Below, one piece after another: positions 3,975-20,702 of a DNA stretch of 37,559 bases. Below the pieces are notes generated by a model. That model was not told where the DNA came from, did not search any database, and saw nothing but the letters and a program-made list of their open reading frames with translations. A program made the position numbers and the translations under genes. Location: positions 1 through 37,559 of the IMG/VR virus record IMGVR_UViG_3300029790_000030. The stretch is one strand, 5' to 3'. The first letter of the stretch is position 1; each line of letters opens with the position of its first letter. Source of the DNA: a virus.

Positions 3975-4002
3975 TTTTTTTTGCGTTGACTATTGGTTCG
4001 GA

Positions 4003-4039
4003 GGGGTGTCCTGCTGTGCGGGGCACCCTTTCTTTTTTT
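4003..4039 (+). terminator. Hairpin plus T-run after the scaffold gene
   Basis: gggtgtcc...gggcaccc imperfect stem (4003-4028) followed by tttcttttttt (4029-4039). Confidence 0.45.
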
Positions 4040-4040
4040 C

Positions 4041-4068
4041 ATTTGTTCAAGTTACGGTTGTATTCATC
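4041..4068 (+). promoter_or_regulatory. 28-bp conserved element (atttgttcaagttacggttgtattcatc); second copy at 32831-32858 with 26/28 identity
   Basis: Both copies end 17-28 nt upstream of the start codon of a tail-tube gene (gp11-like and gp12-like), suggesting a shared late promoter or leader. Confidence 0.5.
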
Positions 4069-4085
4069 AGGCCTGGGGATGTGGC

Positions 4086-4655
4086 ATGATGCCTCAAATG
4101 GATAAGGTGACCGTTTTTAACCAGGCTCTGGCCCAGTTTGGGGACCGGGAGTATGTGAAGGGTTCCCCAGCCGGTCGCACCGTTGATTTGTGGTGGCCTA
4201 CCGTGTTGCGGGAAGCGCTGTTGTTCGGGGCATGGACCTGGGCAACCAAACGTGTTGAGATGGATCGCTCCGTTATGAAGCATCCGATTCCGGATGATTG
4301 CCTGCGCGTGCTGTATGTGGGGGCGGATTTGTTCCGCATTGAGGGGCGTGATTTGGTGGTTGAGCGTTACGGGAAACGCGCCGCCGGGACCGATAAGCTG
4401 GTGGTGGATTATCTTTCCGACGAGGTGGCCCGTTCCGAAGTGCTGCCGGATCACAGTCCGTTTTTTATCAAGGGCGTTGTGTTTCTTCTGGCTGGCAGGT
4501 GCGCTTTGAAGCTGGCTTCTTCTCCCCAGCTTGCGGCCGCTTTGGAGGCACAGGGGGAGGCGTTTTTAAGCAAGGCCCTTTATTGGGACACCTGCCAGCA
4601 TTCTTCCAACGACCAGGATCCTTTAACAGAGATTTTAAGCAGTTCCATTTTCTGA
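4086..4655 (+). CDS. Tail tubular protein A, T7 gp11-like
   Basis: ORF 3993-4655; ATG at 4086 (MMPQMDK...) fits the downstream placement of the motif. By-eye matches to T7 gp11: NQALAQFG against NDILASIG, GAWTWA against RGWTFN, and SPFFIKGVVFLLAGRCAL against PECFRYWIVTKASRQF. Confidence 0.55.
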   Translation: MMPQMDKVTVFNQALAQFGDREYVKGSPAGRTVDLWWPTVLREALLFGAWTWATKRVEMDRSVMKHPIPDDCLRVLYVGADLFRIEGRDLVVERYGKRAAGTDKLVVDYLSDEVARSEVLPDHSPFFIKGVVFLLAGRCALKLASSPQLAAALEAQGEAFLSKALYWDTCQHSSNDQDPLTEILSSSIF

Positions 4656-4659
4656 TGTT

Positions 4660-5355
4660 ATGAGTTCCGATTTCGGGGGTTCCCAGCAGTATAAGTATCA
4701 GGGGCAGGCGGCTTTGAGCAACGGGCGCGCCACGCAGGCGGCTTATGAGAAGAAGGCCCGCGCCCTGGAGGCGGAGGCGGTTTCCGATTCCCACCTGGCC
4801 GCCCGCAATATGAAGCGGATGCGCCAGAATCAGAATGCCGCCATGGGGTCTGCACGGGCACAGCGCGGCGGATCCGGTTTTACTTCCGAGGGGTCCGGCA
4901 GCCAGGCGGAGGTGGCGGTGGCGGATGTGTGGGAGAGCGCCATTGGGGACGCGGCCCTTTCCAACGCTGTTTCCGATGCCAATAAGCGGTTTGCCGCGGA
5001 GTCCGCCCGATACCAGGGGGATCTGGCCATGATGGCGGCACGCAGCGAGGCGGACCAGTATAAGATGCTTTCACAGAATGCCCTTGGTTCTGCCATGATC
5101 CAGACGGCCCTGACGGCGGCGGGGGGTGTCATGGGGGCGGCAGGAATGTCCGGTGGCGGGTTGCTGGGGGGTGTTACCGAGAGCGGGCAGACGTGGGGTT
5201 CCGCCTCTGGAGGAACCCAGGGGGCTTTTTCCGGGATGATGAATGCTTATTCCCTTTCCGGTTCCCTGGGGGGGATGGTGCCGGGGAGCATGCAGTCTTC
5301 CAACAGGTTGAGGGATTCCCTGCTGGCTAATTTCATGGGTTTTGGAAAGAGATGA
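4660..5355 (+). CDS. Gly/Ala-rich internal virion protein, possibly T7 gp14-like
   Basis: 231 aa. The helical N-terminus (AYEKKARALEAEAV...NMKRMRQNQNAA) resembles the gp14 composition, followed by a long Gly-rich tail. Stop overlaps the next ATG. Confidence 0.35.
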   Translation: MSSDFGGSQQYKYQGQAALSNGRATQAAYEKKARALEAEAVSDSHLAARNMKRMRQNQNAAMGSARAQRGGSGFTSEGSGSQAEVAVADVWESAIGDAALSNAVSDANKRFAAESARYQGDLAMMAARSEADQYKMLSQNALGSAMIQTALTAAGGVMGAAGMSGGGLLGGVTESGQTWGSASGGTQGAFSGMMNAYSLSGSLGGMVPGSMQSSNRLRDSLLANFMGFGKR

Positions 5356-5693
5356 GCGTTTCTCCCATGCAGCAGGCTTTTTTTCTGATGGAAGCCCAGC
5401 GCCCCGGCTGGTTCCGGGAGACCGTTTCCCTGGCGGATGCGGGAGGAGGGATCGTGTGGTGCTGCCCTTCGTTGTTTTTTGCGGGGGTGCCGGATCCGGA
5501 GTCTCCCAGGACGTTGATTGTTCTTTTTGCCCACGGCCGCATGGAGGCTGTCAGGGAGTTGGCTTGTCTGGTGCAGGGGCGTTTTGACCGGGCAAGGTGG
5601 CAACGCTGCATCCGCGGACGCGAGGACTGGAAGGAGATTTCCATCACCAGGTTTTTAAGTTTCAACCGTTTCAAGATGAAAGAAGATGAGTGA
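5352..5693 (+). CDS. Hypothetical protein (113 aa), gp13-equivalent position
   Basis: Coupled on both sides by overlaps; no motif. Confidence 0.3.
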   Translation: MSVSPMQQAFFLMEAQRPGWFRETVSLADAGGGIVWCCPSLFFAGVPDPESPRTLIVLFAHGRMEAVRELACLVQGRFDRARWQRCIRGREDWKEISITRFLSFNRFKMKEDE

Positions 5694-7644
5694 TTTACAG
5701 CAACCCATGTACGGAGGAACCCGGATGAATGCGGCTTCCTCCACCCCTGCCCCGGTCCAGATGCCGGATGTTTCTTCCAAGCCCGTTCAGAGGGCGCTGC
5801 AGAATGCCCAGGAGTTTGTGTCTGATGTTGCCCACCAGTACCAGCGCATGAAGGATTTCGGCGAGCAGACGCGGCTGGAAGGCCGGATGAATGATTTGGC
5901 CAGCGAGTTTGAGCAGGAGATGACCCGGAGATTAGGGTTTGCCCGCGGTCATGAGCTGTCTTTTTACGATCGTGACGGGAGGCTGAAAGAGAGCGCCCTG
6001 AATACGTTTGTACGGAATTACGAAGGGAAGTTCCGCGAGTTGAAGGGGAGTTTTGTTTCCCAGGAGGAGGCCTCCAGATTCGGAGCCAGGCAGCAGGATG
6101 TGATGCGCCGACTCCAGGGGAGGGCTTCCGAGCTGGTTCTTAAGGGACAGATTCAGGAGTCCAGACAGGCTTTTGAGGAAGGGTTGAAGGGGGATTTGCT
6201 GCGGAGGGATTACCAGGGAGCCACCCGTAGGCGCATTCAGGCTTACGAGGCCGGCATTATTTCTGAGAATGGAATGAACAACGGTATTCTGGAAGATACA
6301 CGGAACGGCCTTTTGGACGAATACGAGCAAGATATGCTGATTAACCCCAGTGTTGCTTTTACGAAGCTTGGGGACGGCTATTTTGATGCTCTGGGCGCAG
6401 GAGATGTTTTAAAGCTGAAGGAGAAGACCAGAAGGTTTTTACGTTCCGCGAACCGCTCCGAGAGTGAAGATGGAGCGCCCGGTTACAGAAAGGGTTCTCT
6501 TTGGCCGAAAGCTTCCCTCCGTTACGGAGCCACGGAGCAGGAGTACGACTGGGTGGAGCATTATAACCGGACCGGCAGTTACGGGAAATACGCCCCTTCC
6601 ATTAAGTTTGCCTTCCGGGAGGATTTACGGAATCTGCCCCCCGCCAATTCCGGCGAAGAAAGAACAAGGTACGTCAATGACATGTTGAAGAAGTGGGGGC
6701 AGTATGGACAGGTTCTTGGAGATGAAAGGAAGTTGCGCCTGTTTGTGGAAGACCGGATTGACGCCATGGGGAGCCCCAATACGAACCGGAATAATATAGA
6801 GGCCGTTTTGAAGGCCATGCCGGATCATGTATATATCCCTTATTTTTCTTACCAGGTAGCTAATGCTTACAAGAGTGGTGACCAGGAGCAGATTAAGAAG
6901 GAAGAGAATACGCGGGATGAGGTGGAAGCAGATATTTTGTATAAGACGGAACTTTCCATGACAGAGTGGAGACAGGCTCATCCTAATGCCACACTTGCCC
7001 AAGATCTTGCGCAGATCCATCAATTTACCGCTTTTCATGCCGGGAACAGGTTTGCCTATCGGCCTATTACCGAAGAAGACAAAAAAAGATCTGACGAGAG
7101 CCGCATGAAGAAGGCGCTGGAGTCCATGCCTTTGTATTCTTTTGAGCAACAGGAAGAGTTGAACGTGTCTCCAGAAGAGAGGGAGGCCCAGCAGAAGAAG
7201 GCGGCACAATATATTAAGGGCCAAAGACCTTATTTGCCTTCCCCTCTTGAGAACCACCCTGTTTCTTTTGTCCGGCATGGTACGTCCGGAGCGTATGTTT
7301 CCAAGCAGGCTTATGAGGCTATCAAGGCTAAGTTTGGGAATAGGCCTTTTGCTCGCATTTCTCTGGGACGCAACGGAGCTTTTCTAAAGGTTCCCGTGGT
7401 CGGGGTTTATGAGGGGACCCCGCGGGGCGTTGAGGTTTCAGGACCGCTTTATGAACGCATGGCGTTAAGGTTTCCCGGTGAACAGGCCAGCGGGAATGTC
7501 AGCATTTACGACGGGAAGGATGAACCGGAAGCGCCGGAAGATGGATACGGACCAGGCCTGCTGCCTCCTTTGCCGGGTGGGGACGATACTTACACGCAGG
7601 TGAACGATATTGGCGATTCCGCTCTTCTGCCTCTTAATCAATAG
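5686..7644 (+). CDS. Large helical internal virion/ejection protein, T7 gp15 position
   Basis: 652 aa, highly charged and helical. Sits immediately upstream of the giant gp16-position gene. Confidence 0.4.
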   Translation: MSDLQQPMYGGTRMNAASSTPAPVQMPDVSSKPVQRALQNAQEFVSDVAHQYQRMKDFGEQTRLEGRMNDLASEFEQEMTRRLGFARGHELSFYDRDGRLKESALNTFVRNYEGKFRELKGSFVSQEEASRFGARQQDVMRRLQGRASELVLKGQIQESRQAFEEGLKGDLLRRDYQGATRRRIQAYEAGIISENGMNNGILEDTRNGLLDEYEQDMLINPSVAFTKLGDGYFDALGAGDVLKLKEKTRRFLRSANRSESEDGAPGYRKGSLWPKASLRYGATEQEYDWVEHYNRTGSYGKYAPSIKFAFREDLRNLPPANSGEERTRYVNDMLKKWGQYGQVLGDERKLRLFVEDRIDAMGSPNTNRNNIEAVLKAMPDHVYIPYFSYQVANAYKSGDQEQIKKEENTRDEVEADILYKTELSMTEWRQAHPNATLAQDLAQIHQFTAFHAGNRFAYRPITEEDKKRSDESRMKKALESMPLYSFEQQEELNVSPEEREAQQKKAAQYIKGQRPYLPSPLENHPVSFVRHGTSGAYVSKQAYEAIKAKFGNRPFARISLGRNGAFLKVPVVGVYEGTPRGVEVSGPLYERMALRFPGEQASGNVSIYDGKDEPEAPEDGYGPGLLPPLPGGDDTYTQVNDIGDSALLPLNQ

Positions 7645-7661
7645 TTTTAGCACAATAATAT

Positions 7662-10600
7662 ATGTTTGCACAGGATGTTTTTGAAAGGTTGGGGCTGTCC
7701 CAAGATACGGATTTATTGAACGATCTCCAGAAAGAGGCGTTGTTAGAGCCAACGGAAGCGGCGCAGAGTCCCTATATGGATGACCCGGCATATGCCGGTT
7801 TTGAGACTTTGCGCGGTTTGTTTGGTTCCAACCATGGAGATAATCCCTCCATGTATTGGCTGGCACAGGGAGAAGAGATGCCTGAATTTGCCACCGTGGC
7901 GGACGCACAGGCTGCCGTCTGGAAGGATTTCCAGAAAAAGGCCCGTGCTTATCAGGCAGAGCAGGAGCGACAGCAACAGGCACGGGAGGCATTGGCTGCT
8001 ACGATTGATCCCTTCATTGACCGGTACGTGCGCGGGGACGCTGTGGTTCCCTCCCCTGAACAAGTAATGATGATGCAGGAGGCAGGCATTTCTTGGGAGA
8101 GTGTCAGACGAGCCCGAAGAGGGATGGAACTTGTCCGGGAATATGACGCGCAGGGCACCCTGTACGACGACAGGATCATCAATAATCTGGCGGAACAGGT
8201 GGGAGATGATGAGTTGGCACGGCGCATTGTGCTGAATATGTTTTATAATGACGCCAGGAAGTACGCCAAGGATAAGCACGGTGACGAGTGGACCGGGATT
8301 GACTGGATAGATAAGGCAGCCCAGGGGGTAACGGGGATGGTACGCACCGGGGGCGTGAAGGGATGGCGGACAGGTCAGAAGGCCTGGCGGAATTTACAGG
8401 TAATGGGAGAGGTGGATGCCGTTACGAATGCAGCTAAGCGTCTGCCGGAGTTGATTGCTTCCGGAATGGATGTGGATGAAGCACGCGCTCAGATTGAGAA
8501 GGATGCCACTTTTCTTGAGATACGACGCCGCTGGGCTGCCGATCTGGTTCAAACCATGGAAGCCGGGGAGAAGGAATATTTGGAAGGTGAGGACCGCCAT
8601 TTGGTTGGCCGCATTGGTTCGCAGCTTGGTTCCATTATCGGAGATACGGCTCCCTGGTTCATTCCTGCCATTGGTCCTGCTATCGGAGCTTCCTCCGCCA
8701 TGCAATCCCGCAGGGATGAGGGGGTGAGCATTGGGTTAACTATGGAGGAAACAGAGAAGAGGGCCATGATGTTCGGCCAGGCAGATGCTCTGGAAGAGAT
8801 GATTGCTTTTTCCCCCATCGGGCGGTTGACGCCCGGATATAAGTGGTTGAAGAAGGCGCTTGGCGGTGGGAAGGCCGCCGGGAAGCTGGCCCCGTGGCGG
8901 GCTCGATGGATGGCGAGTCCGAAGGCCCAGTACGCTATTCAAGGGCTTTCCGGCGCTGCGGAAGAGGCCATTCTTGAGCCTACAGCCGGGTATTTGATGC
9001 GTACTGTACAGAGCATGAATCTGACGGACGAACGCGGAAAACAGACTTTCCGTCAGTATTTGGACGATATGGGGCAGATGATGCACGGAGAACAGGGGCT
9101 TGCCCTGCTGGCTTTTACGTTTGGGATGTCCGGCTTTAATTATCCTCAAATCAAAAAGGCGGCCCAGGAGTTTGGTCTTTCTCTGCAACATTACAAGGAA
9201 CTGGGAGGCACGGCCCAGGGGTATCTGGAGGCCAGGGAGGAAAAGACCGCCGAAGGTTTTTTGAATAAGGCCCTTGCCAATTTGCATGATTCCTGGATGG
9301 AGGATCCGCAGGCTTCCATGGAGCGGGCGAGCGCGGCTGCCGGAGAACGCCTTTCCGGGGAGCGCATTGAGTCTTTGCGGGAGCTGGACGCGTGGCGGGC
9401 TGCCGAGGATGCCGGCATGGTGCCGCGGGTGGAGCCGGCGGAACAGGAGGGGATGTTCCGTGTGTATGCTCCGGCGCGCAGCCCGAAAGCGCCGCGGGAG
9501 GATGCTTCCGTCTCCAGAGAGGGGCAGGAAGAGAACGCCCCTTCTTACACGCTGATGGACGGCGAGCAGCTGACGGCTTATTTACAGGCGTTTGTGAGCG
9601 AGCAGGTGGAGAGTGACATCCTCTACACGCAGCATTTGCTGGCCGGGGATGTGACCGTGGGCCAGGCTCTTGCCCAGGGGCGTTTTGACGCGGCGGAGGT
9701 GATTACGCGCACGGTGACGGATGAACAGACAGGGGCCGAACGGGTGGTGATTGCCCCGGAGACGCTGGGGCAGATGAAGGCCCGCGCGGATATGGCGATG
9801 GCCGCTATCCGCGCCCTGGAGGCGGAGGGGGTGAGTTATGAGGATGCCGCCGCCCGCATGGATGCCTCGTTGAGCGAGCATCTTCCGCTGGGAACTCTTG
9901 TGAAGACATGGGAGGAAGCCCAGGAACGCATCAGGACGGAACAGGCCCGGAACCCGGAGTTCAAGGCTCCGGCCATGGATGCCCCGTTTTCCAACGCTTA
10001 TGTGACGAAGGTCCGCCGGGGAGATACGTTCCGCCGGGTGTTGAGGTATGCCCGCGGGAATGCGACGGTGGAGGATTTGATGGAGGAAACGATGGAACAG
10101 GCTGTCATCTCCTGGCAGGCGGAGCAGGGTTTGACCTGGGGCGAGTTCGGCGCGATGCTCCAGGAGGCGCAGAAGTCCATCAATGAGTTGTTCCCGGAGG
10201 CGCGGGGGGAGGAGATGCAGTTTATTCACCTGGACGCCGGGAAGCCGGTGACGGGGCATGATGCGATTGAGGCTTTTTCCAAGATCGGGCGTTCCCGCTG
10301 GCTGGCGGACGCGGTGAATCATCCTTCCCTGCCCTCCTGGCTGCGGAAGCTGTTGAATCATCTGGTGAAGTTCCTGGGGGCTTTCAAGGCGCGCGTGGAG
10401 CTGGGCGAGATGGTGCGCCAGGCGGAGGAACAGGGCGTGTTTACCCTGCCGGTTAGGCAGGCTCTGGCGGTGATGCTGGATGCGGGGAATGCCCTGTACC
10501 GGGACCAGCAGGGGGATTTGATTGTCCTGACTATGGAACGGGCCAAGGCGCAGGCGGACCTGGATGCCGCCCTGGGCCGCGGTGTCGCCACGGAACAGGA

Positions 10601-13600
10601 GACGCTGGAAGAGCAGCTTGCCGAACGCAATGCCGCTGATGAACCGGGGCCCGTGGACCGGGCGGAAGAAGAGGCCGACGACGCGAACGCCCAGCAGGCG
10701 CGGCGCGAACGCACGGAGGCGGAGGTAGAGATGCTGGGGGAACGGGATGATGACGGCGTGTTTAACGGAGGGGTGAGCATTCGTATTGAGGACGGGGTAC
10801 GCCAGGGTTTTATTGACAAGGACCGGCTGACGCTTTGCCCGGATGTTCCCCAGTTCAAGCAGGGAGCCGATGAAAAGACGGGGGTGGTGAACCGGATTGT
10901 GGGGGCCTGGCAGCGCAACGCCGCGCCGATTTCCGTGTGGCGCCGGACTGATGGTTCCCTGCAGGTGATTTCCGGCAGGCACCGCCTGGACGCCTGCACG
11001 GATGCGGATATTAACTGCACCGTGTACGAAGAGGGGGATCGGTTCAATCTGGACTGGGCCCGGAGGCACGACGTGGAGAACAATATCCGGGACGGCCAGG
11101 CGAGCGCGTTTGAGATTGCCCGCTACGTTCGGGATTCCTCCCTGTCCATGGCGGAGGCCGTGGAGCGCGGGATTGCCAGGAAGGGAGCCTCCCTGAAAGG
11201 GGTGGAGCTGGGTCTTTATGCCAGCCAGGAGCTTTTGGATGCGCTGGGCAACGGGCTGGTTTCCCCGGATGACGCCTACCGCGTGGCCCTGGCGTTCCGC
11301 AATGATGCCGAAGTGCAGCGTTCCGGGCTGGCCGTGCTGCTGGACGGCGGGAGCTGGCAGGAGGCTTATAATACCATGGCGGCCAAGGCGAACCTGGAAG
11401 CGATTGCCCGCCAGAATGCGGCCAACGGCATGGATATGGGCATGGACCTGTTCGGGAATACGGATAATGAAGAGCTTTACAAGCGCATCGGGAAGTACGC
11501 GGCGGAGAAGTACCGCGAGCTAGGCAAGGAGCTGACGGCGATTAACGGCGCTTCCCGGAATCCGAAGGTGGCCCGGAAGTACGGCGTGAATGTGAATGAC
11601 GCGGCGGCGGTGCAGCAGGTGGTGAAGCGGTTGCAGGAGGAACGTTCCCGCTGGAAGAATTTTGCCGTGCATCCCGATTTGCTTAAGGAGGCCAATAACG
11701 CCGTGATGGTGGAGATGGGGTTGAAGACGCAGGCACAGGTGGGTCAGGAGAATGGCGTGCTTCCTTTGGAGGCACCAGAACAGGAGGCGGATTCCGACGA
11801 TTCGGGGATGTTGCTGCTTTCCCAAGATGTGAACCGGATGCTGGAGGATTTTATAAAACGGGAGGAGGTTCATTTTTCCCTGGCCGGAGAGAATGAAGCA
11901 TTGCTGGCTCCCAATGGAGAGCCATCCCATCTGACGCCGCAACAGTACCGACAGGTAAGGACGCCAGAGTTTAAGCGGTGGTTTGGGGATTGGGAGAAGG
12001 TAGCCCGGTTCAAGGCAGCCGTGGAGAAGATTATGTCTATGGATCCGGTGGCAGCCATTTCCGGCCAAGAGTTCCAGAAGGACGGCATCCCCCTGACCGA
12101 AAAGGTGACGAAGTTCTGGAAGGAGCGTTTTAACGGAGTAGCCATTTCTCCCGAACTTGGAGAGGTGAGGCTTGATCTTGAAGGCGTGAAGTCTTCCATT
12201 GGACACGGCATCGGTTCATTGAAGTCCGCGGCTTTTGCCTGCGTAGAAGACGTGATCCGGAACGGCGTTGTGTTTGACCGTCAGAAGAATTGGAAAGAAC
12301 GCGGTTACGATACAGCGGTGATTGCCGCTCCCGTCACGATTAAGGGCGTGGAGTATGTTTGCGAGGTTGTTGTTGAGCAACGTACCAACAGACAGGGATT
12401 TTACCTGCATGAGGTGGAGATAAAGAAGAAGCTCGAAGACGTGTTCAAGACCTCCACTGAAGGAGGCACGCCCCAAGCTTCCAGAAGTATATTAGCCCTG
12501 CGAGCCGAAGATGTCAAGAGGGAGGAAGAGGGCATGTCCAAGGTGGTGGACGAGAACGGAGAGCCACTGGTGGTGTATCATGGCTCCCCGCATGTTTTTA
12601 CCGTGTTTGACGTGGAGCGTTCCGGAGAGAATTTTAACCGGAGCCGGGAGGATGGAGGGTTGTTGTTTTTTTCTTCCCTGCCGGAGACGGCGGAAGATGT
12701 GCTTCATGATTTAGAGGGCCGTTTTCCGGGGACCGGGTTGGAGAGTGCGCGGCTGTACGCGTGTTTTATGAGGTTGAGGCATCCGTTTACGCTGGATCTT
12801 GGCGATGCTTCACAGCGCCCGTTTTCCGGTGAGGGTGTGCCGGAGAGCGTGAAGGGTTCCCCGATGGCGTGGTATTTGTTTCCTCACGAGTTGAGGAGAG
12901 GGTTTGATGAGGGGAATGCTCATGGCGCAGGTTATGACGGTATTGTTTTGAAGGGCAGGAATGCTTATGACGGGAGTCCGGAGGTGTGGGGGATGGCTAC
13001 GGATTCCCGGCAGGTGAAGAGCGCTGCCGATAACCGCGGGACGTTTGATTCAGAGAATCCGGATATTACGTTTTCTATTATTGGGGAGAAGGCAGAATCC
13101 TTCATGGAGTACCACAATAACGGACTTTCCTACACGGATCCGGCGGACGGGAAGCGGAAGGCGATTATTGATTCCCGCGGGGTGCGGTTGAGGAAGGAGC
13201 ACGTCAGCGTGAGCGAAGGGGGGCATGTGAATGTTTCCCTGGCCGCGGCCCTGGATTTCCCGGAGTTGTTCCGGGCTTACCCGGAGCTGCGGAAGCTGAG
13301 GGTGGATTTTTACCGGGACAGCAGGAGCGGCACGGGAGGGTTTACCGATCCGCAGGAGCATTATATTGCCGTGAATGTGGCACGGGGCGGGAAGAACGCG
13401 GATGCCGGCATGGTGCTGGATACGATTCTGCACGAGGTACAGCATGTGATTCAGGGGTATGAGGGGTTTGCCCAGGGGGCCGGTCGCATGAGCCGGGATC
13501 AGGCGCTTGCTTATCTGGGCGAGAGCATGATCCAGCTGGCGGGCCGGGACGACGCCTGGGCGAAGGAGGCCCTGCCGCGCCTGGAACGGATGAGGCAGGA

Positions 13601-16600
13601 ACTGGAGGCCGGGACGTTGCAGCCGGCGTTTGTGTATGTTTTTTCCCACGGGGAGCAGGAGGCGCGGCTTGCCGGGAGGTTTGAGAAGAATAGCGAGGGC
13701 GTGGTGATGAGCGGCCTGAACGGGTTCCGCCTGCTGGACGCTCCGCCGTTTTCGATTCCGCTGACGGGGGATATTACGGAGCTTGGCGGCATTACGTTCG
13801 GGGGCGGGAGGTTTGGCCGGATGGCCGACAGGGTTTTGGCTCCGAACGGGGATTGGCTTTACGATGAGATGGTGTTCAGGATGCGGGCCGCCGCGCAGCG
13901 GTCCGTGAGTAAGCTGAATCTGTTTGAGACCGGGGACCGGGAGCTCGGCCTTGAGCTGCTGGCGGAGGCGCAGGAGCTGATTTCCACGGTGGAGCGGTTT
14001 CTTCCCCATACGTACGGGTTCGGGCTGGAACCGTATAAGATTTGGCTGAATGTGTTTTCCCTGCTTTACGGGAATAGCGGGAAGATGGCGCCGGATGAGG
14101 CGCTTTCCAGCGCGTTGAGCGCGATTCCCATGGAGAAGTGGCCGGAGATTATGGCGGGAAGTGTGATGAAGCATTTCTGGGGGTATGTAAAACAGCATGA
14201 GACGCTGGGGCCCATGTGGGAGGGTAAGATGAAGGAGTTTGAGGAAGAGGCGAAATTTGCCGAAGCCGGGGAGAAGGCCGCGGAATTGGATAAGCGCCGG
14301 TGGGAGTTTTTTATAGCGAATGGCGCGGAGTTCCTGGAGAAGTACGGGCAGGTGAAGGTGTACCGCCTGATTAGCAAGTTCATGGCCCGCGTGGTGGAAC
14401 AGATTGACCGTTACCGGAAGGACCGGACGCTGGGGCGCATCCGCCGCGTGGCGGCGTCCGTAGCTCCGCGGACGAATCCGAAGGGGAAGCCGCTGCGCGG
14501 GAAGATGGACGCGGAGAGTTACCGGAGGCTGGAGAGGTGCCTGCGCCTGCTGGAGATGACCGAGAGCCAGTACGATGAGTTTTTCCAGAAGAATTTTCCG
14601 GAGGATGCCGAAGAGGGGAAGAGGTGGGAGGATCTGGCCCCGGATGCGCTGGTGCTGGTGACGCTGCCCGACGCGGAAGGGAGGCTGGAAGAGGTGGCCG
14701 TAACGCAGCGGGAGTTGGAGGTTTACGCCTGTTATGAACGGATGGACGTGAATACTGCGGAGAAGTGCGGCGCGGCCCTTGGAGAATTGATTGCCACGTC
14801 CCGCCATGCCTGGGAGAACGCAGCGGAGAAGAAGAAGATGGAGGTTGCCGCCATGGCCGCCCCACTGCTGCAGGCCACCGGGGATTTGGATGATAGCAGG
14901 ATGGCGACGTTCCGCCGGAAGGCGAGGCTGCGGGCTTTGCCGAAGAAGCCCCTTTCCCTGTTTGATTATCTGATGAATTTTAATCAGTATATGCAGGCGC
15001 TTTCTTCCGTGGAGCCGTTTGCCGGGATTGCCCGCCAGTTTGAGGAACGGGCGGCGCGGTTTAATGTGCAGCGGCAGGCGAGCGAGAAGGAGATGCTGCG
15101 TTTTGTGCACAATACCGTAGCGGAGATTGCGGGGTCCGCGGACCGGTATGATATTGCCGAGTGGATTTATGAGGGGCGCATGAAGGAGGATACGGGGATT
15201 TCCGTTGTGGAGCGGGAACCGGATTGGAACAGGAAGGCCAACGCCCTGTACCGGGAACGCCTTCTTCATTTGCTGCGCCGGAAGGTGAAGTCCCACGGGC
15301 TGGAAGCGGTGCAGCTTTATTTGAGGGAGTTTAAGCTTTCCGAGGATTTGAAGAAGGAGGTGAACGCCCTGTTCGGGCACCGCCGCAAGGAGATTTCCGC
15401 CAAGCAGGCGAAGAAGGCATTGGAGCACATGGAGCGCGTGTTTACGCAGAAGGAGTGGGAGCGGTACGGGGACCAGAAGGTTTTTGTGAGGGAGCGGGCG
15501 GAGATGCTGCGTTCCAGGACGAAGTATGCCAAGGAGGGGTATCAGCCGAAGAGTTTCCGGCTGGATGGCCTGTCCCGGATGGAGGCGGCGTATCTGGTGC
15601 TGTTGTCCGAGCAGGCGGATTATACCGAGGCCCTGGCGGAACGCGGGTTTGACGCGGAGGTGATGGACCGGCTGCGCGGGTTTGCCGGGGATGAGGTGAT
15701 GCGGTTTGCGTATGCTTTACGGGAGAAGCTGAATGAGCGAAGCGGACAGGTGCAGGAGATGACCGAGAGGCGCTACGGCACGCCGTTTCCGCTGACGGAG
15801 AATTATTTCCGGGCGTTTCTCGATGTGACGATGGAGGCGATTGATAAGTCGATTGCCGATGCGGCGTCTTACGGGGAAGCGGCCACGGGCGGGAAGTTCG
15901 GGTTGATTCACGCCCGCCGGAAGCATCAGGCTCACCTGGATTTGGAGATGGATGTTTGCACGGCGTTTATGGCGGCCATGACCGAGCAGGATCTTTACCT
16001 GTACGGCTCCGAGATCAGCCGTGATTTGCGGGCTTTGCTGAATTTCAAGGGCGAGGACGGCGAGGCGGGCCGGAGCCTGGAGGTGCTGCTGGGGCGGGAT
16101 GCCGTGGGCAAGCTGATGGCCTGGGCGGATGCGTTTGACCGCGCCGGGGCGGAGAGTATTCGCGGGCACCTGGATATGAACCGCCTGATGAACCGGCTTT
16201 CCGGCGCGGCGGCGCGAGTGCTGCTGGCCGGGCGCGTGGGGACGCTGACCAAGCAGGCGACGACGGTGATTAACGCGATGTATGCTTCCGACGAGATTGG
16301 CCTTGCCGAGTGGCTGGGGGCCGTCCGCCGGTATCACGCCGGGAAGCTGGTGAAGCCTGTACGCGAGATAGAGGCCCTGCCGGAGCTGGACAGCCGCGAC
16401 AAGACGCGGTTCAGCGCCACGCTGGCTGCCATGGGGGCCGACGAGGCCGGGCGCCGGGTGTCCCGCCTGGAACGCTGGAACCGGGAGGGGATGGATTTGC
16501 TGGAACGGGTGGATATGAAGGGGAATGCGATTTCCGCGGCTATTTTGTACGATGCGGTTTACCGGAAGATGAAGCGTGAGACGCCGGACGCTGCGGAGGC

Positions 16601-17324
16601 CGAGCTTGACGCGGCCGCCATGGCGGAGGTGCGGCGCTCCCTGTCCCGCAAGGGTCAGCCGATGACGCAGTTGCAGAAGTCCCTGGCCGCGCAGCACCGG
16701 ACCTGGATGCAGGCGGGGATGTTGTTCCTGGGCGGCGAGTCGATCAATACGATGGGCAATGTGTTTTCCCTGGCCCGCAGCGGGCAATGGGGGAAGGCCG
16801 GGTTGATGTGGGTTTCTCACGGGGTGGTGCTGGCCCTTCTGAATGGGCTGCTTAATTTCATGACCGATGACGAGAAGCGCCGCCGGAAGCGGGAGTGGTG
16901 GCACGCCCTGTTTGATGTGGCGATGGGGCCCGTGATGGGGATCCCTGTCGTGAGCGGGCTGGCTGGCGAGGGGGTGAGGCAGCTTGCGAAACTGTGCGGG
17001 TATCACGCTTTTATGCCGGGGAATAATTTGCTGGTGCCTTTTTCCAATGCGGCGGATATCGGGAAGGCGTTTTCCAACGCCTGGAAGGTGTTTGACGGCA
17101 AGGAACGGCCCTGGGAGGATGACGCCCTTTCTTTCCACGAGCTTTTACGTACTGCGGCGGCGGGGACGGTGGCGTTTTCTCCGCGGACGACCAAGGGGGG
17201 CGCCGCTGCGGTAGGGGCTGCCCTGACGATGGCAGCGTTGCTGAATGTGACGGAGTTTGCCCTTAAAACAGTCCGCAGCGTTCAGGAGAACGGATCGGAT
17301 TGGGATAAGTGGGTTGGAAGATGA
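7662..17324 (+). CDS. Giant (3220 aa) polyvalent internal virion/ejection protein, T7 gp16 position
   Basis: Single uninterrupted ORF. Embedded ParB-like nuclease motif PISVWRRTDGSLQVISGRHRLDA (about nt 10900-11000). HExxH metallopeptidase motif DTILHEVQHVIQG (nt 13431-13445). YHGS segment resembling H-Y-E class ADP-ribosyltransferases (nt 12576-12587). Hydrophobic, Gly-rich C-terminal region (nt about 16700-17000). Confidence 0.7.
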   Translation: MFAQDVFERLGLSQDTDLLNDLQKEALLEPTEAAQSPYMDDPAYAGFETLRGLFGSNHGDNPSMYWLAQGEEMPEFATVADAQAAVWKDFQKKARAYQAEQERQQQAREALAATIDPFIDRYVRGDAVVPSPEQVMMMQEAGISWESVRRARRGMELVREYDAQGTLYDDRIINNLAEQVGDDELARRIVLNMFYNDARKYAKDKHGDEWTGIDWIDKAAQGVTGMVRTGGVKGWRTGQKAWRNLQVMGEVDAVTNAAKRLPELIASGMDVDEARAQIEKDATFLEIRRRWAADLVQTMEAGEKEYLEGEDRHLVGRIGSQLGSIIGDTAPWFIPAIGPAIGASSAMQSRRDEGVSIGLTMEETEKRAMMFGQADALEEMIAFSPIGRLTPGYKWLKKALGGGKAAGKLAPWRARWMASPKAQYAIQGLSGAAEEAILEPTAGYLMRTVQSMNLTDERGKQTFRQYLDDMGQMMHGEQGLALLAFTFGMSGFNYPQIKKAAQEFGLSLQHYKELGGTAQGYLEAREEKTAEGFLNKALANLHDSWMEDPQASMERASAAAGERLSGERIESLRELDAWRAAEDAGMVPRVEPAEQEGMFRVYAPARSPKAPREDASVSREGQEENAPSYTLMDGEQLTAYLQAFVSEQVESDILYTQHLLAGDVTVGQALAQGRFDAAEVITRTVTDEQTGAERVVIAPETLGQMKARADMAMAAIRALEAEGVSYEDAAARMDASLSEHLPLGTLVKTWEEAQERIRTEQARNPEFKAPAMDAPFSNAYVTKVRRGDTFRRVLRYARGNATVEDLMEETMEQAVISWQAEQGLTWGEFGAMLQEAQKSINELFPEARGEEMQFIHLDAGKPVTGHDAIEAFSKIGRSRWLADAVNHPSLPSWLRKLLNHLVKFLGAFKARVELGEMVRQAEEQGVFTLPVRQALAVMLDAGNALYRDQQGDLIVLTMERAKAQADLDAALGRGVATEQETLEEQLAERNAADEPGPVDRAEEEADDANAQQARRERTEAEVEMLGERDDDGVFNGGVSIRIEDGVRQGFIDKDRLTLCPDVPQFKQGADEKTGVVNRIVGAWQRNAAPISVWRRTDGSLQVISGRHRLDACTDADINCTVYEEGDRFNLDWARRHDVENNIRDGQASAFEIARYVRDSSLSMAEAVERGIARKGASLKGVELGLYASQELLDALGNGLVSPDDAYRVALAFRNDAEVQRSGLAVLLDGGSWQEAYNTMAAKANLEAIARQNAANGMDMGMDLFGNTDNEELYKRIGKYAAEKYRELGKELTAINGASRNPKVARKYGVNVNDAAAVQQVVKRLQEERSRWKNFAVHPDLLKEANNAVMVEMGLKTQAQVGQENGVLPLEAPEQEADSDDSGMLLLSQDVNRMLEDFIKREEVHFSLAGENEALLAPNGEPSHLTPQQYRQVRTPEFKRWFGDWEKVARFKAAVEKIMSMDPVAAISGQEFQKDGIPLTEKVTKFWKERFNGVAISPELGEVRLDLEGVKSSIGHGIGSLKSAAFACVEDVIRNGVVFDRQKNWKERGYDTAVIAAPVTIKGVEYVCEVVVEQRTNRQGFYLHEVEIKKKLEDVFKTSTEGGTPQASRSILALRAEDVKREEEGMSKVVDENGEPLVVYHGSPHVFTVFDVERSGENFNRSREDGGLLFFSSLPETAEDVLHDLEGRFPGTGLESARLYACFMRLRHPFTLDLGDASQRPFSGEGVPESVKGSPMAWYLFPHELRRGFDEGNAHGAGYDGIVLKGRNAYDGSPEVWGMATDSRQVKSAADNRGTFDSENPDITFSIIGEKAESFMEYHNNGLSYTDPADGKRKAIIDSRGVRLRKEHVSVSEGGHVNVSLAAALDFPELFRAYPELRKLRVDFYRDSRSGTGGFTDPQEHYIAVNVARGGKNADAGMVLDTILHEVQHVIQGYEGFAQGAGRMSRDQALAYLGESMIQLAGRDDAWAKEALPRLERMRQELEAGTLQPAFVYVFSHGEQEARLAGRFEKNSEGVVMSGLNGFRLLDAPPFSIPLTGDITELGGITFGGGRFGRMADRVLAPNGDWLYDEMVFRMRAAAQRSVSKLNLFETGDRELGLELLAEAQELISTVERFLPHTYGFGLEPYKIWLNVFSLLYGNSGKMAPDEALSSALSAIPMEKWPEIMAGSVMKHFWGYVKQHETLGPMWEGKMKEFEEEAKFAEAGEKAAELDKRRWEFFIANGAEFLEKYGQVKVYRLISKFMARVVEQIDRYRKDRTLGRIRRVAASVAPRTNPKGKPLRGKMDAESYRRLERCLRLLEMTESQYDEFFQKNFPEDAEEGKRWEDLAPDALVLVTLPDAEGRLEEVAVTQRELEVYACYERMDVNTAEKCGAALGELIATSRHAWENAAEKKKMEVAAMAAPLLQATGDLDDSRMATFRRKARLRALPKKPLSLFDYLMNFNQYMQALSSVEPFAGIARQFEERAARFNVQRQASEKEMLRFVHNTVAEIAGSADRYDIAEWIYEGRMKEDTGISVVEREPDWNRKANALYRERLLHLLRRKVKSHGLEAVQLYLREFKLSEDLKKEVNALFGHRRKEISAKQAKKALEHMERVFTQKEWERYGDQKVFVRERAEMLRSRTKYAKEGYQPKSFRLDGLSRMEAAYLVLLSEQADYTEALAERGFDAEVMDRLRGFAGDEVMRFAYALREKLNERSGQVQEMTERRYGTPFPLTENYFRAFLDVTMEAIDKSIADAASYGEAATGGKFGLIHARRKHQAHLDLEMDVCTAFMAAMTEQDLYLYGSEISRDLRALLNFKGEDGEAGRSLEVLLGRDAVGKLMAWADAFDRAGAESIRGHLDMNRLMNRLSGAAARVLLAGRVGTLTKQATTVINAMYASDEIGLAEWLGAVRRYHAGKLVKPVREIEALPELDSRDKTRFSATLAAMGADEAGRRVSRLERWNREGMDLLERVDMKGNAISAAILYDAVYRKMKRETPDAAEAELDAAAMAEVRRSLSRKGQPMTQLQKSLAAQHRTWMQAGMLFLGGESINTMGNVFSLARSGQWGKAGLMWVSHGVVLALLNGLLNFMTDDEKRRRKREWWHALFDVAMGPVMGIPVVSGLAGEGVRQLAKLCGYHAFMPGNNLLVPFSNAADIGKAFSNAWKVFDGKERPWEDDALSFHELLRTAAAGTVAFSPRTTKGGAAAVGAALTMAALLNVTEFALKTVRSVQENGSDWDKWVGR

Positions 17325-17466
17325 ATCCGGTGAAGACGGTAGCGGATGTGATGGATTAAAGGCACATTCACTTGTGTCATCACATTAACATATCATAATG
17401 AATGTTTTATAAAAAATAATATGTTTTTTAGTTGCAGAAATAAAAGAATGATGTTCTAATCTTCTT

Positions 17467-17521
17467 GACGTCGGAGGTTTGTCCTTCCCGGACAAGCGTC
17501 TGCCTTATGGTAAGGCCGACG
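17467..17521. terminator. Nested inverted repeats between convergent genes (bidirectional terminator candidate)
   Basis: GACGTCGG (17467-17474) pairs with CCGACGTC (17514-17521), enclosing TTGTCC...GGACAA. A T-run (tatttttat) follows on the + strand. Confidence 0.35.
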
Positions 17522-17528
17522 TCTATTT

Positions 17529-18356
17529 TTATACCCTTTTTCTGGGGGGATAAGAAATCCGCGTAACTCCAGATGATGTCTGTTTACGCACGCCTGAATG
17601 TTGTTTTTTAACAGGTCCCCCAATCCAGCGCAGGGTGTTATGAATTATACCGGAGTTGTCTTTCCACGAATAAAAGCAGTCTTCCAGTTGGGAGTAGAGT
17701 GGCATGATTGGAGAGAATTCCGCAACTCGCAATCCAATGATGGTAGTGACAATGTCTGCTATTTGAATACCTATGTTTTTAGCTTGAGATATGGCAAACA
17801 TAGGTATTTCAAGAATAGAGGATCTCATCTGACTACCAGGAGCGCTTTTGACAAGGAAATTGGTAATGGCAGCTGCATTCCTGCCGTTCGTTCCATCATC
17901 CCGGTTATCAATAATGATGATGGCTTTTCTCCCATAATGTTCCCGTTTCATATAGATATTGATACGTTCACAGAGACTTTTGAATGTAGCATCAAGAACA
18001 CCAGTGTCCTTGCAAGAAAAACTTTGCATGGCTTGGTCAAAACAGACACACCCAAATACCGTAATTTTACTTTTTTTCAAAAATTTGAGAATGGATTCAA
18101 TGAGTTTGATGTTAGTTGAGCCTTCGGGGCGCATCTCGTGTTGTTTGAAGGAGTACCGGGATAAGAGATCTTTTCCCTTCAGTTCAGAGTTGTCCGCGTA
18201 GTCTTTTCCAAGATGTTGAAGTTTTAATTTATAAATGGCATTGGCAATTTTTGTGTAGTCTCCAATAGGGATAGCTACTCCACACATAGCTCCAAATTTA
18301 TGTTTTTCTCCCCCTCTATCCAGTTCTCTAAATGTTTCATCCAAGAAAATCAACAT
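17529..18356 (-). CDS. DUF3800-family protein
   Basis: Begins MLIFLDETF (the DUF3800 N-terminal yIDESG-like hallmark) and carries the later IGIQIADIVTTIIG motif (QiADl-like). AT-rich gene in the cargo island. Confidence 0.55.
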   Translation of the reverse strand: MLIFLDETFRELDRGGEKHKFGAMCGVAIPIGDYTKIANAIYKLKLQHLGKDYADNSELKGKDLLSRYSFKQHEMRPEGSTNIKLIESILKFLKKSKITVFGCVCFDQAMQSFSCKDTGVLDATFKSLCERINIYMKREHYGRKAIIIIDNRDDGTNGRNAAAITNFLVKSAPGSQMRSSILEIPMFAISQAKNIGIQIADIVTTIIGLRVAEFSPIMPLYSQLEDCFYSWKDNSGIIHNTLRWIGGPVKKQHSGVRKQTSSGVTRISYPPRKRV

Positions 18357-18654
18357 ACCAATTATTTATGTGTTTTATATACCTAAAGTCCCGACTTCCT
18401 AAAGGGGCGTCACATTCCTTTGCAAGGCGGCGACAACGGATGAAAAACTAAATGAAAAAGGGTACAACCTCAAGGAAATATTGCACAACTATTTTTGGGA
18501 TATACTATATATTGTGGCATTATCCTTGATTTCAAGGAATATTTTTATTGTCTTGCGTGATTTTTCTGTCTAGTACTTGGCTTCATGTTCGTCCGACTGG
18601 TTGTCAAATACTTGAGGACTTGAGTTTTTGAGGATATAGGAATACCTTGGAGAA

Positions 18655-19401
18655 ATGAAAGGTTTACTGATTGCCATTTGCGTTTTCCTGGGGCTGGCAT
18701 TGTTGCCGATGCCCTACGGCTATTATATGTTCCTGCGGTTGGCTGTGTGTGCTTACGCCATATTTGTGTTTACCCAAGAGCAGAAGAAAGGGGTGTGTTT
18801 CGGGAGCGTATCCGCTGCCGCTATTGCTCTGCTTTACAATCCCGTCTTCCGGGTGCATTTGGAGAAGGAGGTCTGGATGTGGGTGAATATAATAACCATA
18901 TTATTATTCATCATTGTCTCGTTGCCATGGAGAGAGTTTGCAGAGACAAGAAGAGAACGAACAAGGAAACTTAAAGAGGAAGCAGAGAAAAGGAATGAGG
19001 AAAAATTTTATGGAGTGTATTATAAATATTTTAAAAGTAATTTGCTTCTTCCGAATTACTGTGTAAGATGTAAAGAAACTATAGACATATCTACAAGCAA
19101 AGATTTATTATGTCCTTCTTGTTATCAAAAAGTTCAAGAATTTATAGAGCAAGAAGAGAATGAATTTACGAAGACGGGAAATCTTCCCATGAAATTGAAT
19201 TTCAAATGTAAACATTGTGGAGCGAAAGAAAGAACAAGATCGTTTACATTTGGATTTTGCAAACCATGTTATTGGTCTCTTTGCGAACTTGAGTCAATCG
19301 CGAAGAAAGATTTAAAAGGCTATGAGCGATATAAAAAAAACATGCTGGCTATAAAAAAAGCAAGAACGAATAAAGAAAAAATCTATTGGCGTCCAGCATG
19401 A
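18655..19401 (+). CDS. Membrane protein with C-terminal double zinc-ribbon (four CxxC pairs)
   Basis: Three predicted N-terminal TM helices, a charged linker, then CVRC...CPSC and CKHC...CKPC. Confidence 0.45.
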   Translation: MKGLLIAICVFLGLALLPMPYGYYMFLRLAVCAYAIFVFTQEQKKGVCFGSVSAAAIALLYNPVFRVHLEKEVWMWVNIITILLFIIVSLPWREFAETRRERTRKLKEEAEKRNEEKFYGVYYKYFKSNLLLPNYCVRCKETIDISTSKDLLCPSCYQKVQEFIEQEENEFTKTGNLPMKLNFKCKHCGAKERTRSFTFGFCKPCYWSLCELESIAKKDLKGYERYKKNMLAIKKARTNKEKIYWRPA

Positions 19402-19565
19402 AAATAATACTAACAGGAAACTCTACCAATTAGGTTAGCCATTCAGGAAAATTTTATATAACAGATAGTTTTTTTTATTTTTATTATTTTATATTTTATT
19501 ATAACGATTATTACTGCACTATATCTGACAATAACTGTTATAAAATAATTACTACAAAAGACGGT

Positions 19566-20042
19566 TTACAAAACCGCATAAATACAACCCGCAATTGTTA
19601 TAATAGGAGCAAACCAAACTAGTAGACCGCCAGCCAGATATGATGCTCTGTGACTAAATGTTCCATATAAAGCAATCCCTAATGATGTATCATAACATCC
19701 ATACATTTGTTTAGTTGTTTGATAGATACCGTTTGAAATAGATAGAGCATAAGTCATGATTAGTAACATAATCGGAATAAGTTCTAGACCTGAATAAAAG
19801 TATATCGCTGCAACATAAAACGAACTGATATAAAGAAGTATACTAATACTTGCTATGAACACTTGAAGACCGGGAGCCTTTTGTCCAAATACATACGCAT
19901 TGATAAGTTCCGGTATAGAGAGTATGAGATTCGCTATAGGCAACACAGCCAAGAGAATGAAGATGATAGCAGGTACATAGAGGCCGATGCAGAATGCCCA
20001 GATAAGTCCAACGAGTGAAATAGGGAGAAGAATAAGGATCAT
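19566..20042 (-). CDS. Polytopic membrane protein (about 5 TM), downstream partner of the YHYH gene
   Basis: 158 aa, almost entirely hydrophobic. Starts 24 nt after the stop of 20067-20351 on the same strand. Confidence 0.45.
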   Translation of the reverse strand: MILILLPISLVGLIWAFCIGLYVPAIIFILLAVLPIANLILSIPELINAYVFGQKAPGLQVFIASISILLYISSFYVAAIYFYSGLELIPIMLLIMTYALSISNGIYQTTKQMYGCYDTSLGIALYGTFSHRASYLAGGLLVWFAPIITIAGCIYAVL

Positions 20043-20066
20043 AGTTTTAAATTGCGCTGATTTTGT

Positions 20067-20351: not shown

Positions 20352-20702
20352 GCAAATTCATAATACCATGAAATAAAGAGAGTTGTAAATAATTTGCTTA
20401 ACTCTTTCAAAGGCATTACGAAAGGATTATTTCCAACATTTATTTACATGTTTCACCTGCAGTTTATCGTTGTTTGCTAGAAGGGGCCGCGTGGAGGAAG
20501 GTATTACATTAACAAGAACGGGAATAAGACGTATATCAAAAGAAAATAAAAGCCCCCTGGCCCGGAGGCCAAGGGGCGAAGCATTCTAACGTAAAGAGGC
20601 TAAATAATAGCCTCTCTTCTCAGAATAAGCAACTCCTAAATCATTGTTTCAGTATCATTATGTGAAAATGCGTACTGGAATTGTTATTGAGGGAGTGTGT
20701 CC

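Follow-up and report, generated by a model that had tools for sequence, protein, structure and literature searches.

Polyvalent proteins of the phage type were defined as a class by Iyer, Burroughs, Anand, de Souza & Aravind (2017, J Bacteriol; PMC5512222), and those encoded next to virion genes are predicted to be packaged and injected, with P1 DdrB, T4 Alt and the virion RNA polymerase of N4 as precedents (Iyer et al. 2017, PMC5512222). P1 DdrB, a product of the dar operon that combines a ParB domain with a metallopeptidase (MPTase) domain, is packaged in the head and protects the incoming DNA (PMC5512222). N4 gp50 is the virion RNA polymerase of the Schitoviridae and is accompanied by the ejection proteins gp51 and gp52 (PMC13434306, PMC11445570). 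It is made up of a helical N-terminal domain with membrane-spanning helices, the RNA polymerase cargo, a C1 domain containing an HExxH motif and a mostly helical C2 domain of ~110 kDa (~1100 amino acids (aa)) for which no structural homologue is known; its ejection, in the form of 'beads on a string', follows that of gp52 and gp51, and it is treated as the gp16-equivalent inner-membrane component (PMC13434306). Here we analyse a giant gene at positions 7662..17324 (plus strand) of IMG/VR virus record IMGVR_UViG_3300029790_000030, a stretch of 37,559 nucleotides (nt) that is referred to below, over its whole length, as the window and whose numbering is used throughout. The window belongs to a temperate, short-tailed prophage of Akkermansia muciniphila, and the gene encodes a protein of 3220 aa that a preliminary description had assigned to the slot of T7 gp16. 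It is near certain that this is a phage polyvalent protein, and on balance we favour the view that it is probably packaged in the virion, ejected and anchored in the host membrane as an effector.

The reading frame runs from an ATG to a TGA that is its only stop codon, and the chance of 3220 stop-free codons, computed with the base composition of the open reading frame (ORF) itself, was ~1e-54. A word-indexed search of 5.8 billion proteins gave more than 120 protein clusters that matched the giant protein at 98-100% identity and had lengths of 3211-3222 aa, the 3211-aa form resulting from an alternative start, nine codons downstream, that is chosen by some gene callers. These near-identical proteins came from NCBI, ENA, JGI and Logan assemblies, on contigs of ~10 kb to 2.88 Mb, and, where they carried a public name at all, were called 'hypothetical protein' or 'ADP-ribosyltransferase-containing protein [Akkermansia muciniphila]'. 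The gene was intact across hundreds of independent Akkermansia assemblies, and diverged variants in IMG/VR (3099-3593 aa, 64-87% amino-acid identity overall) were also uninterrupted. Thus, the claim of an uninterrupted 9.66-kb ORF was borne out, and the possibility that a frameshift or stop found on resequencing would split it is excluded by the near-identical copies together with the stop-free diverged variants. The giant ORF is one real, conserved polypeptide of 3220 aa, and its gene makes up 26% of the window and ~23% of the prophage genome of ~42.6 kb.

Two domains of the giant protein, and only two, passed the Pfam gathering thresholds. The first was the ADP-ribosyltransferase (ART) domain ART-PolyVal (PF18760; aa 1630-1795, 12549..13046; E 1.4e-13, 52.2 bits against a cut-off of 31.2), which was matched over the full profile and in which the catalytic His of VVYHGS and Asp of GYDGI are conserved. 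The second was LPD3 (PF18798; aa 1479-1578, 12096..12395; E 5.8e-8, 33.4 bits against a cut-off of 27). Ahead of these lies a linker or leader motif (..TPEFKRWFGDWE; aa 1393-1447, 11838..12002) that matches phrog_30335 and recurs ahead of the equivalent region in relatives; PHROGs provided two matches, both to fragments of giant uncharacterised families. Two further modules were recognised by fold or motif. A confident AlphaFold2 (AF2) model predicts that the region of aa ~1040-1260 (10779..11441) has the alpha+beta fold of the ParB/sulfiredoxin (Srx) type, followed by helices, and the figures listed for matches of this type were 7.9 for KorB, 7.7 for pNOB8 ParB-N, 6.7 for sulfiredoxin, 6.2 for Spo0J (23% identity) and 6.1 for ParB. 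A Foldseek comparison with predicted viral structures gave pieces of large proteins from uncultured phages, three of them named 'Large polyvalent protein associated domain-containing protein', and then phage ParB/Spo0J proteins. The sequence GRHR at aa 1105-1108 (nt 10974-10985), which corresponds to a GxxR-type active-site arginine motif, was invariant in 12 to 15 relatives. The other module, at aa ~1860-1960 (13239..13541), is a zincin-like metallopeptidase core with HEVQH at aa 1924-1928 (nt 13431-13445), set in a consensus (TLLHExQHxIQxxEGF) that is kept across the family; it gave weak matches to DUF6782 in a segment-wise Pfam scan and to phrog_13543. The several enzyme-like modules noticed in the initial reading are therefore present, with the qualification that ART-PolyVal and LPD3 pass in profile searches, whereas the MPTase and ParB modules are recognised by motif and fold only and lie below the Pfam thresholds.

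Most of the remaining polypeptide falls into two large conserved parts. The N-module (aa ~300-1350, 8559..11711), delimited by phmmer mapping against 150 representatives and by invariant columns in the family alignment, is collinear in the family; besides the ParB-like part it includes a Gly/Pro-rich segment that is hydrophobic by hydropathy (aa 325-347, 8634-8702) and an alpha/beta domain of unknown function (aa ~680-840, 9699..10181). The latter was modelled by AF2 with a per-residue confidence score (pLDDT) of 75-95, and in a Foldseek search of BFVD it matched pieces of uncultured-phage proteins called 'Large polyvalent protein associated domain' proteins. The C-module (aa 2021-3220, 13722..17321), defined from the phmmer family and almost all alpha-helical in the AF2 secondary structure, contains the invariant motif YGxPFPxxENYFRA (aa 2705-2718, nt 15774-15815) and closes with a cluster of three to four hydrophobic, Gly-rich helices (aa 3020-3201, 16719..17264) that are conserved in the family consensus. 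Kyte-Doolittle peaks of 1.6 were found at aa 3046-3064, 3082-3100 and 3183-3201, with a weaker one at 3020-3038, in agreement with the hydrophobic, Gly-rich end that had been described. Neither module was found in Pfam, PHROGs, NCBIfam or PDB sequences, and the C-module was also without a PDB fold match. An NCBIfam scan of the giant protein and seven neighbours gave no match, PDB sequence searches with the whole protein, a C-module profile and an N-module profile gave nothing meaningful, and a search of 50,697 phage genomes with aa 1-3000 as the query gave no match outside the ParB, LPD3 and ART pieces.

Relatives were collected by running phmmer with the C-module (aa 2021-3220) as the query on 1.84 billion cluster representatives, at a cut-off of E<=1e-3. 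This gave 282 proteins, 91 of them at E<=1e-30, nearly all of 2000-6081 aa and always matched at the extreme C-terminus. Their backbone is collinear, with the N-module (including the ParB-like part) followed by a variable middle (aa ~1350-1800), the HExxH core and the C-module. Among 15 full-length members the variable middle contained ART-PolyVal in six, LPD3 in three, MuF_C in two and PBECR5 in two, and these sequence comparisons indicate that the region between the N-module and the HExxH/C-module is an exchangeable effector cassette, represented here by LPD3 and ART. Divergence between the close Akkermansia variants is likewise mosaic: aa 1-600 are almost identical, the C-module (14260-17321) is either identical or replaced wholesale, and most replacements fall in aa 1000-1600 (10660-12460), the ParB-like and LPD3 region. 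This pattern suggests recombination hot spots and diversifying exchange within the giant gene. When one genome per GTDB species was scanned, 24 of the 25 loci encoding relatives were in Akkermansia metagenome-assembled genomes (from human, sheep, roe deer and rabbit); the scan used a single motif, by which more distant members elsewhere could have been missed. Nearly all traceable members come from Akkermansia, and the family appears to be almost confined to phages of this genus.

The assignment to the polyvalent class, which had been proposed from the letters of the DNA, was upheld by these results. A single giant polypeptide combines an ART of the H-Y-D clade, an LPD, a ParB/Srx fold and a zincin HExxH peptidase, two of these with scores above the gathering cut-offs, and relatives carry MuF_C or PBECR5 in the same slot; ART-PolyVal, LPD3, MuF_C and PBECR5 are all domains of the Iyer catalogue, in which cassettes are similarly shuffled among relatives. 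As in that class, the gene stands among virion genes: it closes its operon, with the portal, adaptor and candidate core genes all upstream of it.

The same domains could instead be degenerate relics, serving as spacers or fold units that thread the tail in a purely structural protein of the ejectosome or internal core, analogous to gp16. The terminal position in the core-gene block and the make-up of the product, a long helical protein with hydrophobic helices, would fit such a role, as would two features of the domains themselves. At the strand-2 position Phe (LFFSS) replaces, in this ART domain and in those of the nearest relatives, the Tyr of the H-Y-D clade, and other family members show 'AVSFAD' at this site; because the middle catalytic aromatic residue is Phe and not Tyr, the predicted ART activity is not certain. 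The ParB-like domain is below the Pfam thresholds, with no match of the giant protein to ParB_N or DdrB-type Pfam profiles and a match to ParB_N (E 0.032) in one of 12 relatives. However, relatives that are only 22-45% identical keep the ART His and Asp, the ParB GRHR and the HExxH with little or no variation, which argues for retained chemistry, and active exchange of the cassette for effectors such as PBECR5 and MuF_C would be hard to explain for spacers. We consider a purely structural role unlikely.

The position of the gene provides the second line of evidence. It is the final member of a block of five plus-strand genes that begins with a T7 gp11-like tail adaptor (3993..4655; phrog_394, 3e-12), which is called elsewhere as 189 aa and whose true start is probably near 4086. 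The adaptor is followed by a 231-aa Gly-rich protein (4660..5355) that has no family match and, with a hydrophobic segment at aa 145-169 by hydropathy, is a candidate ejection or internal protein; by a 113-aa protein (5352..5693) with a hydrophobic segment at aa 25-43, which on position and size is the counterpart of N4 gp52 (150 aa); and by a 652-aa protein (5686..7644), the counterpart on the same grounds of N4 gp51 (644 aa) and T7 gp15 (747 aa). The 652-aa protein had no match in Pfam, PHROGs, NCBIfam, the PDB or the 50,697 phage genomes; that it might be the missing capsid protein was ruled out by the real capsid gene (PF19821), which lies outside the window. The genes are tightly packed (4655/4660, then overlaps at 5355/5352 and 5693/5686); the last junction of this chain, which had been described as translationally coupled, is a close gap of 17 nt ahead of 7662 and not an overlap. 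Downstream, a GC-rich hairpin with a T-run (17467..17530, read from the sequence as GACGTCGG...CCGACGTC then TATTTTT) closes the late operon and adjoins a converging DUF3800 gene. The giant gene is thus the last gene of a late structural operon, and its product, as had been supposed, ends in hydrophobic helices.

A similar block was found in a second group of Akkermansia phages (L060 467-20194, L026-L028, L034, L041 and L043-L065), in which the giant protein, of 3458 aa and also with ART-PolyVal, is only 26% identical to the one described here. In this group the order is nozzle-TerL-adaptor-231-126-870-giant, and the block is kept though the portal region is elsewhere. The adaptor (40% identical) and the 231-aa protein (40-48%) occupy the same positions, and an 870-aa counterpart of the 652-aa protein (25-30% identity) lies directly upstream of the giant gene. 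Retention of the block with so divergent a giant protein indicates that it is a functional unit. Separately, the replication module of this group was 99% identical to that of the window, the recombination module (a 366-aa protein and an exonuclease) of L034, L051, L052 and L060 was 91-100% identical, and this sharing, alongside very different structural proteins, amounts to strong mosaicism between Akkermansia phages.

The arrangement also bears on whether the giant protein might not be a virion component at all, and might act in the cytoplasm or membrane as a product of the prophage or of early infection, for example in superinfection exclusion or as a toxin. The membrane helices are compatible with this, and directly after the gene comes a low-GC island of accessory and lysogeny genes, among them those for DUF3800, DUF2971, SieB and the repressor. 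However, the giant gene has the same orientation as the portal, adaptor and core genes and is closely packed with them, the terminator and the converging gene split off the island, the GC and codon pattern match those of the structural genes and not those of the island, and synteny is conserved in the second phage group. Because of this orientation, packing, composition and synteny, a non-virion prophage protein is the least likely of the explanations considered, and a very improbable one.

The framework of polyvalent proteins, the precedents of P1 DdrB, T4 Alt and N4 gp50 and the position of the gene together lead us to infer packaging, ejection, anchoring and delivery. In the reading that we favour, a few copies of the giant protein would be packed in the capsid above the portal with two or three of the small upstream proteins. 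These would exit via the tail in the order of their genes; the small proteins would form the outer-membrane and periplasmic parts of a transient ejectosome, and the giant protein would follow as a string of loosely connected domains. Its C-terminal hydrophobic helices, and possibly also aa 325-347, would anchor it in the cytoplasmic membrane, so that the enzyme domains would be placed in the cytoplasm at the point of DNA entry. There the ART may modify host proteins with NAD+, the ParB/Srx domain may act as an NTP-dependent DNA-binding or nicking module on incoming or host DNA, and the zincin domain may have a role in regulating the polypeptide or in cleaving it into working pieces. Delivery in the virion is likely; that the giant protein forms part of the ejection channel itself is uncertain.

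The channel might be built by the 231-, 113- and 652-aa proteins alone, with the giant protein as packaged cargo that, like the Dar proteins, protects incoming DNA against restriction or other defences. DdrB-like proteins with ParB and MPTase domains have been tied to the P1 dar operon and to incorporation in the head (Iyer et al., PMC5512222), and three smaller upstream proteins could suffice for a three-part ejectosome, as in T7. On the other side, in its strictly terminal gene position and its conserved hydrophobic helices at the C-terminus the giant protein mirrors gp16 and gp50, both of which take part in the inner-membrane complex, and it seems improbable that it is cargo of this kind.

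Several results, in addition to the substituted ART residue and the subthreshold ParB domain, weigh against a membrane-anchored, ejected effector. The AF2 model of the C-module, made from an alignment of 13 sequences and almost wholly helical, had a pLDDT of 58, and in a Foldseek search this low-confidence model found no match in the PDB at E<=1e-3; since the model is poor and has no fold match, a role for the C-module can be proposed only from its helicity, its hydrophobic helices and the fact that it is conserved. By hydropathy, no membrane helix was predicted in the 652-aa protein. On T7 gp16 the hidden Markov models (HMMs) of the N-module and C-module scored -1.8 and -2.3 bits. Beyond a weak match at the HExxH, hhalign and the HMMs detected no homology to N4 gp50, either in its N-terminal region or in C2, and the hydrophobic helices of the giant protein are C-terminal, whereas those of gp50 are in the N-terminal domain. 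Finally, no publication on this phage, and no virion proteomics bearing on packaging or ejection, was found in the literature.

Three long ORFs on the minus strand inside the giant gene (9582..11069, 13050..15428 and 15717..17138) are shadow ORFs and not genes, judged on codon register and composition. All three share the reverse-strand frame whose codons are in phase with those of the sense gene, and this frame is almost free of stops because the sense gene has just 13 TTA, TCA or CTA codons among 3221, with gaps of 476, 646 and 889 codons. Their translations are enriched in Leu, Arg, Pro, Gly and His (GC at the first codon position 0.77-0.81), and none of them was called by any gene caller in the assemblies examined, so that their earlier dismissal as artefacts was correct.

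The low-GC (31-47%) accessory island directly after the giant gene extends over 17325-25400. It encodes a DUF3800 protein (17529-18356, minus strand), a protein with DUF6804 and a double zinc ribbon (18655-19401), a multi-pass membrane protein (19566-20042, minus strand), a small HicA-like ORF (20754-20999, minus strand), a DUF2971 protein (21077-22042, minus strand), an S24 repressor (22157-23224, minus strand) and a SieB-like protein (23252-23752, minus strand). These are likely to be moron, defence and exclusion genes.

In kind, the structural genes belong with those of short-tailed phages such as T7 and N4. Elsewhere in the window are a T7-type portal gene (1310-2977; PF12236, 1.6e-75), genes for TerS, TerL and an endolysin, the replication/recombination module, and a gp12-like nozzle gene (32887-35712, plus strand; phrog_376; PDB 8ck1_A 'Tail Nozzle', 2e-49). 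The location of the nozzle gene, between TerS and TerL and a long way from the adaptor, is atypical of a T7-type tail; the gene is preceded by a low-GC (36%) gene for a 324-aa protein of unknown function (31793-32767, minus strand; phrog_8999). Between the endolysin and the portal is a 103-aa ORF (980-1291; 96 aa in other assemblies) that has no family match and, with its hydrophobic N-terminus and Ala/Lys-rich middle, might encode a holin, spanin or small protein of the virion. Megablast linked the window to Akkermansia phages through short shared pieces only, with no identical phage in the 50,697-genome collection, and identity with the Akkermansia phages Moulinsart, Chambord or Chantilly (strain YL44) was ruled out by sequence and size.

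No capsid protein, integrase or fibre gene was found inside the window, and its ends do not coincide with those of the prophage. An identical 95-bp repeat stands at both ends (1-95 = 37465-37559); it had to be considered as a T7-like direct terminal repeat, and was ruled out as such since it consists of the 3′ part of a tRNA gene and its terminator. Positions 17-104 are the 3′ 88 bp of tRNA-Thr(UGU) together with this terminator, and form the att site. In longer contigs the true left end reads from the host topoisomerase IV gene through a complete tRNA-Thr(UGU), the integrase (PF00589), the capsid gene (PF19821) and genes for proteins of 688, 134, 105 and 75 aa to the endolysin and portal. At the right end TerL is followed by the att sequence, the sequence of 105-397, a second endolysin copy and then host genes, for example those for the chromosomal ParB and BatA. 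This second copy, outside attR, is 94-99% identical to 398-789 (99% in L007). What appears as a 37,464-bp 'circle' is thus the stretch that separates the two copies of the endolysin gene, produced by assembly collapse or by recombination, and is without the genes for integrase, capsid and probable fibre that the real prophage carries; the estimate of ~42.6 kb for this prophage agrees with contigs of 40.8-43.9 kb, and the giant gene is unaffected. The four genes upstream of the endolysin (688, 134, 105 and 75 aa; L066 6020-9029) showed 80-91% nucleotide identity to a block of the unrelated Akkermansia phage Chantilly (L001 14864-17506), and the endolysin itself was 93% identical. From these identities the five genes look like a lysis and probable receptor-binding cassette that is exchanged between phage types of one host.

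Much work has been devoted to Akkermansia muciniphila as a gut commensal and a candidate probiotic. There has been hardly any characterisation of its phages, and the prophage with the giant gene is very common in public assemblies. If the giant protein is injected, it would be the first action of the phage on the cell, combining ADP-ribosylation, a ParB-type DNA/NTP module and a protease, and differences in the cassette from strain to strain would directly reflect the conflict between phage and host in the gut.

Comparison with described systems separates what is known from what is new. The polyvalent class itself has been known since 2017 and the ART domain is already present in the NCBI name, so this is no new class. 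Partial relatives occur outside Akkermansia: the giant proteins of Vibrio phages 1.183.O (2706 aa), D478 and 1.211.A/B and of Shewanella phage X14 (2740 aa) share a ParB-like module of ~400 aa, with E values of 2e-75 to 3e-78 for 1.183.O and X14. These phages are also short-tailed, with genomes of ~36-37 kb; 1.183.O and X14 are cultured phages of marine origin, and in both the giant gene follows small genes and precedes the tailspike gene (in 1.183.O the tailspike candidate is a 732-aa protein whose function is assumed). The giants of 1.183.O and X14 lack the C-module, as tested with the HMM, and the annotation of X14 and 1.211.A/B suggests methylase-type effectors instead. The names given to the X14 (1-8223) and 1.183.O (13398-21518) giants, 'DNA methylase subunit' or 'coil containing protein', understate them. 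The Dar proteins of P1 (DdrB, DarB), compared by their published description only, resemble the giant protein in joining a ParB-type domain to a zincin peptidase; the Pfam model of DdrB-type ParB, in contrast, has no match in it.

The likeness to T7 is one of position. The portal, adaptor and nozzle are T7-type, and the giant gene is the last and largest after the adaptor and core genes, as gene 16 is in the T7 order 11-12-13-14-15-16, although the nozzle gene is displaced to between TerS and TerL; like gp16, the giant protein would be expected to reach the cytoplasmic membrane. It differs in being 2.4 times longer and in carrying effector domains. BLASTP and the family HMMs revealed no similarity to T7 gp14, gp15 or gp16 (best BLASTP E value of the giant protein against gp16, 0.51), and Pfam scans of the whole protein and of its segments yielded no lytic transglycosylase, SLT or lysozyme family. 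Consequently, the upstream genes that had been called gp14/gp15-like are so in position and size but not in sequence, and the suggestion that effectors had been grafted onto a T7-like ejection protein scaffold, for which the low-confidence model of the C-module also gave no fold match, was not supported. The idea of a gp16 slot retains its value in a functional and positional sense, because N4 gp50 is treated as the gp16-equivalent inner-membrane component (PMC13434306), but not as a statement of homology.

In architecture and position the closest match is the N4 gp52-gp51-gp50 operon without the RNA polymerase, with homology only weakly indicated, and only at the HExxH. The giant protein is in the size class of gp50 (3220 against 3500 aa) and has its parts in the same order: a helical N-terminal region, cargo, an HExxH at 1924 and ~1200 aa that are predicted to be helical and match no solved structure. 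In N4 the gene order is endolysin-...-portal-...-gp52 (150 aa)-gp51 (644 aa)-gp50 (3500 aa), and here also the giant gene is last, downstream of the portal and tail genes and preceded by genes for 113 and 652 aa. It differs in having no RNA polymerase domain detectable by Pfam scans or family HMMs, with ParB/Srx, LPD3 and ART in its place, and in belonging to a temperate phage of ~42.6 kb with a T7-type portal. When 62 family members were aligned by hhalign with eight Schitoviridae C-terminal domains, only a strand and the HExxH helix were aligned, with a score of 34.5, an E value of 0.019 and a probability of 2.4%, against a score of 18.8 for a reversed-column control; with a single N4 sequence, too, alignment was confined to the HExxH core. 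The family HMMs scored below zero bits on gp50 and showed no similarity to N4 gp50-gp53, and the 652- and 113-aa proteins had no sequence similarity to gp51 and gp52 (BLASTP for gp51; HMMs). The giant protein might thus be viewed as a functional counterpart of gp50 that lacks the polymerase and a positional counterpart of T7 gp16, and as part of a small, temperate, genetically simpler system it could serve as a model for the passage of multi-domain proteins of megadalton scale through a podovirus tail.

New with respect to the libraries searched are the near-restriction to Akkermansia, the N4-like architecture without a polymerase, and the large modules themselves. The N-module of ~1050 aa and the C-module of ~1200 aa account for two thirds of the protein and correspond to none of the LPD, Pfam or PHROG families on record, which sets it apart from the class of Iyer et al. 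As a tentative proposal, which we regard as possible rather than probable, the N-module, HExxH core and C-module may together form an undescribed injection chassis of Akkermansia phages. This would be the polymerase-less equivalent of the N4 gp50 scaffold, taking part in the inner-membrane portion of the ejectosome through its C-terminal helices and bearing a swappable effector cassette (ART, LPD3, PBECR, MuF-C and others). If this is true, variation of the cassette would document an arms race in a gut commensal of medical importance, and the design seen in the Schitoviridae, in which cargo is carried on an ejection protein, would be a general solution among small temperate podophages.

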